A program made the position numbers and the translations under genes. Below are positions 47,883 to 52,666 of a stretch of DNA of 64,000 bases, piece after piece; the stretch's first letter is position 1; the number at the start of each line of letters is the position of its first letter. A model generated the notes under the pieces. It was not told where the DNA came from and did not search any database. It saw only the letters and a list, made by a program, of their open reading frames with translations. Origin of the DNA: an uncultured Bacteroidota bacterium (GTDB lineage: Bacteria > Bacteroidota > Bacteroidia > Bacteroidales > SZUA-534); NCBI GenBank assembly GCA_946186925.1, contig CAMHPA010000010.1:2595-66594 (forward strand), written 5' to 3'.

Positions 47883-50800
47883 AAAAAATATGTTCTTTAT
47901 TGATTGCCGCCACCACGGTGAGTGGGCTATTCGCGGAGAATATCAGCGAGCAGCAGGCATTGGAGATTGCTGGCAAATTTGTACAGTACGAGCAAATGGC
48001 AAAGTCGGATAACGGCAAATCGTCTGTCAGTGCGGAATTCACGCTGTCTATGGCTTACAAGATGCCTTCGCGTGTGCAGAAGAATACTAGCAATGTGTAT
48101 ATCGTCAATATCGGTGATGACCAGGGATTTGTAATCGTTTCGGGCGAAAGCGGGACTGAGGTGGAGGTGCTCGGCTACTGCGACCATGGAACGTTCAATT
48201 ATGCCGATGCCCCCGTTCAATTGCAAGACCTTCTCAGCGAGTATTCGGTTGGTATTGACAGCCTGAGAAATAATCCTTCGTTGGCTGCGGACAAATCGGC
48301 CGCCAAAAACATAACTGACAGTTGGGCGGATGATTTTGACCATTACCCTTCTTATTTAGGCGATATGATAGTGGAGCCGCTAATCAAATCTAAATGGAAT
48401 CAGACAAGTCCGTATAACCGCTTCATTCGCGACCAATGCTATACCGGATGTGTGCCAACCGCAGTGGCTCAAGTTATGCGTTTTTGGCGTTGGCCTAAGG
48501 CAACAAAAGATTCTGTTTATGATTGGAACGCAGATAGTGTATGGACGAAAGTGGATTTTTCCGGCCGCACGTACGACTGGGATAATATGCTCGATGACTA
48601 TGAACACGGCTACACTTGGGAGCAGGCTGATGCCGTTGCCAAATTAATGACTGATGTGGGAAAGGCAATGGGAACACGCTATTGCCAACCCAACGGCAGT
48701 CCTACAGGTTTTGGCAGTGAGGCATTGGTACGCAATTTCGGTTACGAGCCCGGAGTCCAATCTATTACTGGCAACAAAGCAGCCGATGTACGTGAGGAAC
48801 TAAAGGCAGAACTTGACAATGGGCGCCCCGTGCTTTACGCAGGTGATCCAGAGGAGGGCGACGGACACGCACTCATTTGTGACGGCTACACGGCTAACAA
48901 CTATTTCCACTTCAATTATGGTTGGGGCGGATATACTGACGGCTTCTACCGGCTTTCGGCTGTGCCAAAATATATCAACAATGTACAGATTTGGACAAAC
49001 TTCCGTCCGTATGACGCAGAGGAGAAGATTGTGGATAATATCAAATATGGACTGCTGCCAAACGGCAATGCGGAAATTCTTGACTATTTGGGCGGTGGAG
49101 TGAACGTGGATAACGGAGCGATAGTCATTCCCGATACCATCACCGATGAAAGTACCGGCAATAAATATGCTGTCACGCGCATCTGCAAACAGGCATTTTA
49201 CAACAAGGGCAACTTCGATAAGATTACTTTCGGAAACAACATTGAGACCATCGACCGTTTCGCGTTCATTCTTTCAACAATAGACTCTGTCATATTGAGT
49301 GATAAAATGGAGGTGGTGCCTGATGATGCGTTCCAAGTGGCCAATGTCTACTACTTGTATATCGGCAAGAACGTGAAACGCATTGGTAAGAGAGCATTCG
49401 AACTCTGCCCGCTCAACGAGATTGTGAGCAAGAGCCGCCAATTGGAATTAGACGAGGAAGCCTTTGCAAACTCACGGCCCCAGCGAGGCGAGTGGGAAAA
49501 TTGCATCGTCAAAATCAACAAAAAAGCCTTTTATGGTGCCACGCTGAGTGCAGACACCTATTTCAAGAATCTGGAAATCATCGGAGACTCAGCAACGTAT
49601 GGCGGTCGTTGGGGAAGGGGTTCGCAGTTCTTCCACATCGGTCCAAAAGTGCGGGAAATAGCGCCATCGGCCTTTGACGGAATGTTTGAAGGCAGTACTG
49701 TGCCATACTTGATTGTGGATTCTCTTAACCCATATTATTCCGACGATTTTGACCCTATAATCTATAATAAGGACAAGACGTGTCTTCTTATCGCATTAAG
49801 TTCCCCGGGTTCGGGCATTTGGCCGGAAACACTAATTAAGATGGCACCAGGGTGTGTGCGCGGGAAAATGAGCAGTTTTAATATTCCGCAAACAATTGTG
49901 GATTTGGAAGGAGCATTTAGTGAATGCAAACAGCCCAAATACTCATATGCTGATGTCACTTGTCCGTTTATGGTTCCTCCCGTTATTTCTGATGCCACAT
50001 TCAGTGACGAGATTTTTGCCGACCCGGAGAAGAATGTTTATCTGCAGGTGCCGGAAGGGACTGAAAAACTTTATGCAGATGCACCAGGCTGGCGCAAGTT
50101 CGGCGACTATATCACCACCATGTACGAGGAAGATTTTAAGCCACTTCCACCACAGGCTTTGAACTATCAAATGGTGGTGCATGGAGATTCGTCGAGGACT
50201 TTGATAGATATCAGCGAGGTTAGCACAATCCGCTTCAGCGAAGATGAGAATGGCGAGGCAATGGTGACTATAAGTGTGAACGGACGCAACGACATAACAA
50301 CCAAAACCGCTAATATTGACAGCATAACGTGGAAACCGGGTTTTGTGTATGAGGGTGCGGAGATTTTTACCATTAACGATTCTTCTCTTACCATCAACGC
50401 GCAGAAATGCTCCATCACTTTTGGCGCTACAACCTTTGATGACAGCGCACAAATATGCGTTCGCAACTCGGTACTCCTTCCGCGTCCTACTCAAGGTGTT
50501 ACAGGCGGTGTGGGCATCGATATAAGCATGCTGACTGATTCAGGAGTGGTACACGAACTGAGCGGTGTGGCGAAAATAACAATTCCCTTAGATGCTCCTG
50601 CAGACCAAAAGGTAGGCGCGGCATATTACAATCCCGAAACAGATGAGTGGGAGCCTGTCTATTTTGAGTATGACAAGGATGCGGGAGTAGCCACTATTCT
50701 CACCGACCATTTGTCGTTCTATTCCCTCTTTTACACTCTCAATGACCGAACCAAAGATGAAGTGTTTAGAGCGTTTGAAGAGTTTCCTGTGGTTTATAAC

Positions 50801-52666: not shown

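Follow-up and report, generated by a model that had tools for sequence, protein, structure and literature searches.

A candidate self-cleaving ZU5/GAIN-like beta-sandwich between a C10 protease/LRR head and an unannotated conserved tail in a giant protein of an uncultured Bacteroidota bacterium

We analyzed a 64,000-nucleotide stretch of DNA from an uncultured Bacteroidota bacterium (contig CAMHPA010000010.1, hereafter the window), which encodes a giant protein of 1595 amino acids (aa) combining a C10 peptidase with leucine-rich repeats (LRR) and a long C-terminal region. The open reading frame (ORF) of the giant begins with a signal peptide, followed by an Inhibitor_I69 propeptide (aa 19–123), a Peptidase_C10 domain (aa 173–357), and BspA-type LRR (LRR_5) extending to approximately aa 755. 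The Peptidase_C10 match was above the Pfam threshold (PF01640, E 2.4e-53, aa 173–357), which assigns the domain to the C10 (SpeB-like) family. This part carries the motifs GCVPTA (Cys191) and GHALICDGY (His330), and by analogy with SpeB we take Cys191 and His330 to be the catalytic residues. The remainder, aa 751–1595, gave nothing significant in Pfam, NCBIfam, or PDB-sequence searches, in agreement with the first-pass annotation of this DNA, which had left the region without a family. The start given there for the region (50130) was off frame by one base, as aa 751 begins at 50129; the region itself is real. Matches of the region or its sub-segments to YtxC, DUF1217, and CRM1_C in Pfam and NCBIfam were far under the cut-offs and were treated as noise. 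The only PDB sequence or profile matches were designed Kelch proteins, which were found through a hairpin 'YNPETxEW' ('YNPETNEW') and dismissed as a convergent turn motif. The giant and the features of its C-terminal region are as follows (nucleotide (nt) positions in the window; pLDDT, predicted local distance difference test).

47879..52666, plus strand: giant C10/LRR ORF, 1595 aa (ORF list and Pfam).
50156..50338, plus strand: small N-terminal beta domain, aa 760–820, 'YQMVVHG...DSITW' (AlphaFold strands E4–61, pLDDT 80–95).
50339..50743, plus strand: beta-sandwich suggested to be ZU5/GAIN-like, aa 821–955 (model pLDDT 88, Foldseek).
50708..50716, plus strand: H944-L945-S946, predicted autoproteolytic site, with the putative scissile bond between L945 and S946, i.e., between nt 50713 and 50714 (conservation and model).
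50714..50743, plus strand: predicted post-scissile strand SFYSLFYTLN, aa 946–955, the last strand of the sandwich (model strand E188–195).
50780..51211, plus strand: conserved helical region of low model confidence, aa 968–1111 (pLDDT 31–58).
51083..51196, plus strand: Gly/Ala/Ser-rich hydrophobic stretch, aa 1069–1106, with its core at aa 1083–1103 (hydropathy).
51212..51694, plus strand: confidently modelled helical bundle, aa 1112–1272 (AlphaFold and conservation).
51695..52030, plus strand: beta-sandwich, aa 1273–1384, 'KVTIRVKDSS...' (AlphaFold and alignments A3 and A7).
52031..52663, plus strand: C-terminal domain of very long beta strands, aa 1385–1595 (AlphaFold and profile coverage).

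Residues from approximately 760 to 1595 are a single conserved module rather than a chain of unrelated pieces. The first-pass annotation had described helical surroundings followed by beta modules up to the C-terminus, and the AlphaFold models agree with this order, placing helices at aa ~975–1270 and strands at aa 1273–1595.

We built an AlphaFold model of aa 760–965 from a 31-sequence alignment. The model was all-beta, with a mean pLDDT of 87.9 and a predicted template-modelling (TM) score, pTM, of 0.75. In a Foldseek search against the PDB, rank 1 was the ankyrin-B ZU5-ZU5-UPA-DD tandem (4d8o, E 7.5e-4, probability 1.0), rank 2 the ankyrin-B (AnkB) ZU5 domain 6m3q_E, rank 4 the BAI3 GAIN domain 4dlo_B (E 1.4e-2, probability 1.0, root-mean-square deviation 5.0 Å across 159 columns), and rank 17 the ankyrin-G (AnkG) ZU5 domain. 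The matches to the ankyrin ZU5 and BAI3 GAIN folds had probabilities of 0.96–1.0, E-values of 7.5e-4 to 4e-2, and a TMq of approximately 0.45 for the two-domain query. These results suggest that the sandwich at aa 821–955 is ZU5/GAIN-like by fold. The segment that the first-pass annotation had called a ZU5-like sandwich ending in ...TDHLSF is KVGAAYYNPETDEWEPVYFEYDKDAGVATILTDHLSFYSLF (aa 911–951, nt 50609–50731; DHLSF at nt 50705–50719), and its call holds in that the best fold matches in the PDB were ankyrin-B ZU5 (4d8o, 6m3q_E) and BAI3 GAIN (4dlo_B). The searches did not place the region confidently among ordinary adhesin or Ig-like domains, an outcome that had been named beforehand as refuting.

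The H-L-S tripeptide was the best-conserved feature of the sandwich domain. Among 21 homologs, including one that was only 18% identical, H944 was invariant and T942, L945, and S946 were nearly invariant. A scan of all fetched proteins with a hidden Markov model of the sandwich gave 135 domains, and 128 of these contained H-[LF]-[ST] (H-L-S in 111, H-F-S in 15, and H-F-T and H-L-T in one each). In the 78 sequences sharing <60% identity, the His and the Ser were each conserved at 94%, the Leu at 82%, and W924 at 100%. The intact motifs had only L or F at position −1 and only S or T at position +1. In the exceptions, the His and the Ser vanished jointly, giving a small subclade that reads TD[RK]PGTYG (P0141, P0153, P0166, and also P0056). 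We counted this joint loss in favor of cleavage; the same pattern occurs in non-cleaving members of known families. The [RK]-P-G subclade (the same four entries) also offers candidate natural non-cleaving controls.

In the model, the last two strands (aa 937–942 and aa 947–954; model residues 178–183 and 188–195) are joined by a turn that holds H944-L945-S946. The GPS motif of GAIN domains is HL followed by S or T, with cleavage after the Leu. At the HFS/SFS sites of PIDD, Nup98, and CARD8/NLRP1, a buried Phe or Leu at position −1 strains the backbone, and the Ser at +1 attacks via an N-O acyl shift (PMC3210808). The H-L-S turn arrangement of the giant appears to match both the HFS/SFS sites and the GAIN GPS. 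Because the tripeptide is the most conserved feature and occupies the turn that precedes the final strand, which is the place of cleavage in ZU5, Nup98, and GAIN domains, autoprocessing between L945 and S946, which had been proposed at H-L-S in the first-pass annotation, is a reasonable prediction. By this analogy, cis-autoproteolysis at the L945–S946 bond would be the most likely mechanism.

In the mechanism that we propose, the Ser946 hydroxyl would attack the Leu945 carbonyl in an N-to-O acyl shift, and the ester would then be hydrolyzed. The Leu or Phe at position −1 would act as a buried anchor, the His at −2 would assist, and the turn before the last strand would be strained. The 177 kDa mature protein would be divided into a 102.9 kDa head containing the C10 protease and the LRR and a 74.0 kDa tail comprising aa 946–1595. 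Because SFYSLFYTL, with which the tail would begin, is the last strand of the sandwich in the model, the fragments should stay together, and head and tail would remain non-covalently joined until force, unfolding, or degradation separated them, as is the case for G-protein-coupled receptors (GPCRs) of the adhesion class and NLRP1/CARD8. Fragments of GAIN domains remain non-covalently bound after cleavage (PMC13197933). We give slightly better than even chances to the reading in which the module serves as an autoproteolytic junction that is cleaved but stays attached.

Several points weigh against this reading. The Foldseek E-values were marginal, with only one ≤1e-3 and a TM score of approximately 0.45, and generic glycosidase beta-sandwiches were also among the matches. 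The fold evidence is suggestive and not strong, because one match alone passes E 1e-3 and the glycosidase sandwiches score as well. Pfam ZU5, GPS, GAIN, FIIND, and Nup98 autopeptidase gave no match even at E≤10, and a profile search of the PDB gave no ZU5/GAIN chain. Many genuine ZU5 domains, including the ankyrin domains that are the top matches here, are not known to cleave. Furthermore, the H-L-S was placed by the strand order of the model and not by a residue-level superposition on a known cleavage site, and the giant has no recognizable route across the outer membrane. The low pLDDT at aa 968–1111 in the model of the tail may be an artefact of cutting off the sandwich as a packing partner.

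In an alternative reading, the sandwich does not cleave but acts as a structural or adhesive spacer, as the ankyrin and UNC5 ZU5 domains do. The giant would then be a single chain, the module would serve as a stalk or envelope attachment, and the H-L-S would be kept for folding or for binding of the helical domain. Such a spacer fits the ankyrin ZU5 domains as the best fold matches (not known to be autoproteolytic), the autoproteolytic families that are unmatched in sequence, the even co-evolution of head and tail, and the Ig-like and beta domains of the tail, which are typical of surface stalks. However, structural constraints alone rarely fix, at 94% and across phyla, a turn with a His at one position, a Ser/Thr two residues on, and only L or F between them, and it does not account well for the joint loss of the H and the S. 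In addition, the tail cannot be the anchor in the monoderm relatives, in which the N-terminal side consists only of a lipid or transmembrane anchor. We consider the non-cleaving spacer a serious but rather unlikely explanation.

We examined the distribution of the module. In the exhaustive profile search, only matches at profile positions of at least 270 were used; the 96,799 profile matches at E≤1e-3 are uninformative on family size because LRR columns contaminated the profile. A second homolog search, which used a word prefilter, gave mainly the C10 clade. The genome closest to the window locus was a rumen 'Salinivirgaceae' metagenome-assembled genome (MAG) (L004, 96%). The C10-LRR-module architecture was found in MAGs of Paludibacteraceae, Prevotella, and Bacteroidaceae and in Xylanibacter brevis ATCC 19188 and Segatella baroniae DSM 16972. 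Outside the C10 clade, the sandwich and the helical core occurred in proteins of ~680–950 aa from Clostridium, Syntrophonatronum, and Anaerolineaceae/Dehalococcoidaceae MAGs, all of which were annotated as hypothetical and none of which had a Pfam domain. The module was thus found in Bacteroidales, Clostridia, and Chloroflexota, each time behind a tether or an enzymatic head. The elements directly before the sandwich were a lipobox, a Zn-ribbon with a transmembrane helix, a transmembrane helix, dockerin-like repeats (recognized by eye from the sequence), CAP (also with dockerin-like repeats), or C10-LRR. The small beta domain of the aa 760–820 type also follows the signal peptide in stand-alone Bacteroidota-type relatives (P0054, P0066, P0087), and some relatives end in BACON in place of the C-terminal beta domain.

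The constant element across the family was therefore [tether or head]-[H-L-S sandwich]-[helical core], with which a shedding or priming function at the junction would fit. Because the sandwich is always preceded by a tether (lipobox Cys, transmembrane helix, or dockerin-like repeats) or an enzymatic head, we read the tail as a conserved payload that would be kept cleaved-but-attached and primed. A bolder extension is that this phylum-spanning, tethered extracytoplasmic family uses GAIN/ZU5-type self-cleavage as a cleaved-but-attached switch; once parted from its tether or head, the cryptic 650-residue tail, whose hydrophobic helical core would be labile, would be set free or exposed and would act on a membrane or signal. 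If true, adhesion-GPCR or NLRP1 activation would have a counterpart in bacteria, with the module in rumen and gut Bacteroidales fused to a C10/LRR head and paired with a small partner tagged for the type IX secretion system (T9SS). We regard this extension as speculative and improbable as a whole.

In regards to the six monoderm loci examined, a paralog of Lgt (prolipoprotein diacylglyceryl transferase, PF01790) lies directly downstream of the module gene in three, and genes of Zn-ribbon membrane proteins flank the module gene in four. The Lgt paralogs (L044 8198–9001, L045 8117–8920, and L048 4707–5492) follow lipoprotein members, are 33–42% mutually identical, and occur in divergent Firmicutes-type loci. 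The Zn-ribbon proteins form two membrane families (~230 aa and ~480–520 aa) without sandwich or helical domain, at L048 5610–6302, L049 4253–4942, L052 4264–4965, and L003 5874–7052 and also at L044 9017–10468 and L052 7288–8856. A divergently transcribed protein of ~490–506 aa, helix-turn-helix-like by eye, is common to L044 and L052. The 7-kb metagenomic contig L003 carries tandem module paralogs (77–2071 and 2874–5408), one a lipoprotein (LSGC) and the other with a Zn-ribbon and a transmembrane helix, and both contain T-D-H-L-S.

Weakly related sandwiches with 'T-[DET]-H-F-S-x-[WY]' were found in LRR giants of 3300–5300 aa (P0096 aa ~3210–3270 and ~3913–3998, P0170 ~3229–3307, and P0117 ~5161–5237), and they matched no named Pfam family. 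In three cases they stand directly before a C-terminal transmembrane helix with a Lys/Arg tail, which is a GAIN-like juxtamembrane topology. The stand-alone entries P0010, P0016, and P0019 were rejected as evidence of a mobile module, as they are split or frameshifted copies with a C10-LRR ORF directly upstream. The split giants lie at L002 3491–5749 / 5757–8249 and L001 1–2355 / 2352–4526, in different frames, and the splits fall near the LRR/beta-module junction in one contig and inside the sandwich in the other. These two MAG contigs carry either pseudogenes or assembly errors and gave rise to the stand-alone entries.

The tail was modelled from aa 952–1595 with 38 sequences, without the preceding sandwich, and the mean pLDDT was 74. 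Residues 1112–1595 were confidently modelled, and aa 968–1111 were helical with a pLDDT of 31–58. This low-confidence region contains helices at aa 1030–1057, 1062–1075, and 1079–1099 and holds the Gly/Ala-rich stretch. It is conserved like its neighbors (44% versus 42%), and its low pLDDT may reflect conformational lability. The helical bundle at aa 1112–1272 has the conserved aromatics Y1125, Y1126, W1160, Y1189, and W1194. Near its end, the window protein has a Gly at aa 1271 (nt 51689–51691) where 98% of the 78-sequence non-redundant set has Asn ('MN[TK]' to 'MGK'). The Ig-like beta-sandwich at aa 1273–1384 is kept even in the Firmicutes relatives, according to the consensus of alignments A3 and A7. 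The C-terminal domain has strands of 20–24 residues (E555–575, E578–601, and E624–643 in model numbering, pLDDT 85–97), and profile coverage places it only in relatives with Bacteroidota-like leaders, a division by leader type and not by taxonomy. Foldseek searches of the tail yielded nothing significant in either the PDB (best E 0.08, probability ≤0.25) or BFVD, and no match to a toxin or pore former reached significance. Matches to gasdermin, MACPF, aerolysin, CoxG/START, and the levivirus maturation protein had probabilities ≤0.6 and TM scores ≤0.12 and were dismissed. No active site was recognizable in the helical domain, where the conserved residues were mostly aromatic or Gly, together with D1012, R1155, D1280, and S1291. 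The tail, made up of ~300 helical residues followed by an Ig-like sandwich and then a beta domain with long strands, is a previously unannotated family.

The hydrophobic small-residue stretch described in the first-pass annotation, LKVLMAKT...VALEKF, was located at aa 1069–1106 (nt 51083–51196), 125 residues past the motif. It contains the top Kyte-Doolittle (KD) 19-mer of the whole protein (1.89), and aa 1083–1103 are the top Eisenberg 21-mer (<H> 0.68, hydrophobic moment muH 0.20); both exceed the signal peptide. The family consensus of the helix is GTxxMxASMxxVAxI[D/G][Y/V]xLNKF. Outside the C10 clade, the helix of most relatives includes a conserved Asp-Tyr, whereas in the C10 clade Gly-Val/Ile replaces this pair (mean KD 1.61 versus 1.43 elsewhere). 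These values bear on whether the stretch is a true transmembrane anchor that places the head and the C-terminal beta domains on opposite sides of a membrane. The KD of 1.89 and the Eisenberg value of 0.68 do reach classical transmembrane thresholds, but an N-terminal Sec signal peptide combined with a stop-transfer helix would trap the protein in the inner membrane, and the helix contains a Pro close to where it starts and is rich in Ser, Ala, and Gly. The monoderm relatives are, moreover, already anchored N-terminally by lipid or a transmembrane helix. A constitutive transmembrane anchor is argued against because of the Asp conserved in most relatives, the upstream Sec signal peptide, and the ~490 well-folded soluble residues downstream, and we consider it very improbable. 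We propose that the Gly/Ala-rich helix belongs to the conserved core of the helical part and does not serve as a stop-transfer membrane anchor.

The first-pass annotation had further suggested that autoprocessing at H-L-S frees a membrane-inserting or pore-forming toxic effector through this helix, so that the giant would be a polymorphic toxin with a protease and an effector. A cleavage-type motif is indeed present, and aa 1083–1103 are the most hydrophobic segment, non-amphipathic, and at the Eisenberg borderline for transmembrane helices. The helix also belongs to a conserved helical region whose pLDDT is <50, which would be expected of metamorphic segments, and the last domain has very long beta-hairpins and non-significant matches to gasdermin, MACPF, and aerolysin (probability ≤0.1). 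Against these, the tail gave no significant structural match to a toxin, the helix of most non-C10 relatives contains Asp-Tyr with the lower mean KD given above, and an approximate Hessa-type sum of +3.2 kcal/mol disfavors insertion. The evidence on membrane insertion is made up of borderline hydropathy, a low-pLDDT region, Asp-Tyr in relatives, and no toxin fold match.

The polymorphic part of the claim did not hold. Identity to 36 full-length relatives was 51% for C10, 44% for the LRR, 48% for the beta-module, 44% for helical region 1, 42% for helical region 2, and 36% for the C-terminal beta domain, with no cassette-like break after the motif across these six regions. The gene downstream of the giant in the window is convergent (52770–54380, minus strand), and the downstream neighbors at 24 related loci fell into 22 unrelated clusters, so that no conserved downstream immunity gene was found. 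These results indicate that a swappable polymorphic toxin tip is not supported; the tail is conserved and not variable from rumen Bacteroidales to Clostridia and Chloroflexota MAGs. We judge release of a toxic effector to be distinctly unlikely.

A small gene is coupled to the giant on its upstream side.

47391..47882, plus strand: partner ORF, 163 aa, with a signal peptide (ORF list; overlaps the ATG of the giant by 4 nt).

This overlapping arrangement occurred in 21 of the 22 complete related loci, and the partners all belong to one family, sharing 34–86% identity with the copy in the window. Of the 22 partners, 14 matched TIGR04183, the T9SS type-A sorting domain (best E 1.9e-6); the window copy itself gave no match. 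The giant matched neither TIGR04183, TIGR04131, nor a Pfam C-terminal domain (CTD) of this type and is thus not identified as T9SS cargo. The partner family is unrelated to the beta-module of the giant in hhalign (probability 1.4%), and no similarity of the partner to staphostatins was detected, as there was no PDB match. In Bacteroides, small genes coupled to C10 protease genes are putative inhibitors (PMC2873492). Candidate roles for the partner are those of inhibitor, surface dock, and export adaptor.

A second giant is encoded at 34927–41118 on the plus strand (2063 aa) and contains 12 BspA-type LRR_5 stretches and InlB B-repeats (Flg_new_2). It ends in a typical-looking T9SS type-A CTD, '...IRVYDAMGRMV...GVYIVKTGSTVKRVLVK', read by eye and unscored. 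It lacks an H-[LF]-[ST] sandwich and lies in a stretch of lower GC (0.43–0.44). Positions 1–4000, at the window's left end, have low GC (0.39) and a strong positive GC skew.

Much work has been done on ZU5/GAIN-type self-cleavage in receptors of animals and in inflammasome sensors. For bacteria, the literature searches that touched on this gave it only as a prediction, with no experimental case for such a protein. The sharply conserved H-[LF]-[ST] site, the cultured carriers, and the simple fragment sizes make the present module a clean test case for bacterial self-cleavage. If cleavage does occur, the abundant C10/LRR giants of the rumen and gut would be two-piece complexes, which would change how their protease and adhesin activities are studied. 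The analysis also defines an unannotated family of ~650 residues in Bacteroidales, Clostridia, and Chloroflexota for which no structural relative was found, and it raises a question of surface display, as the giant has no T9SS tail while its translationally coupled partner family has one.

We compared the giant with known systems. The GAIN/GPS of adhesion GPCRs and polycystin-1 (BAI3, 4dlo) is, like the module, a beta-sandwich with H-L-[S/T] in the turn before the last strand, located where a large adhesive ectodomain meets the remainder of the protein. Its last strand stays embedded after cleavage and the fragments stay associated, and the same is proposed for the giant. However, GAIN has its helical subdomain A before the sandwich, whereas the helical region of the giant comes after it. 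The giant also has no GPS cysteines, no seven-transmembrane region, and no sequence-level similarity to GAIN/GPS, and it is bacterial and secreted. In regards to the ZU5 and ZU5-UPA (FIIND) domains of PIDD, NLRP1/CARD8, UNC5, and ankyrin (4d8o, 6m3q), which include the best structural matches of the sandwich, an H-F-S or S-F-S type motif stands at the C-terminal edge of the sandwich before a long strand, with a buried hydrophobic residue at −1 and a Ser nucleophile at +1; 15 relatives of the giant read H-F-S. The giant differs in that a new helical-plus-beta module follows in place of UPA or a death fold, in that Pfam ZU5/FIIND is not matched, and in that its location is extracytoplasmic and not cytosolic.

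Among bacterial systems, the SEAL domains of RsgI anti-sigma factors are described as extracytoplasmic domains beside a membrane tether that autocleave and whose fragments stay non-covalently attached (PMC10556640). This architecture is analogous to the Zn-ribbon, transmembrane helix, sandwich, and sensor-like tail of P0026 and P0145; SEAL has a SEA-like fold and not a ZU5/GAIN fold, and no anti-sigma domain or link to a site-2 protease was seen in the family of the giant. The Bfp proteases (PMC2873492) resemble the giant in that a C10 (SpeB-like) protease gene lies within a few bases of a gene for a small secreted protein. They are single-domain proteases without LRR or a C-terminal module, and the partner family of the giant differs in its T9SS-type tail. 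The polymorphic toxins of PMC3482391 carry RHS repeats, are exported by an SpvB/TcdB-type route, and end in variable toxin tips accompanied by immunity genes; the giant shows none of these features. The same work predicted ZU5-superfamily autopeptidases in Sec-exported bacterial surface proteins that combine adhesion and enzymatic domains (Zhang et al. 2012); it describes a C-terminal CxH thiol motif, whereas the family of the giant has H-[LF]-[ST]. Predicted bacterial ZU5 autopeptidases in surface proteins are a precedent for the proposed cleavage of the giant, in which the candidate site is attached to an unannotated tail family.

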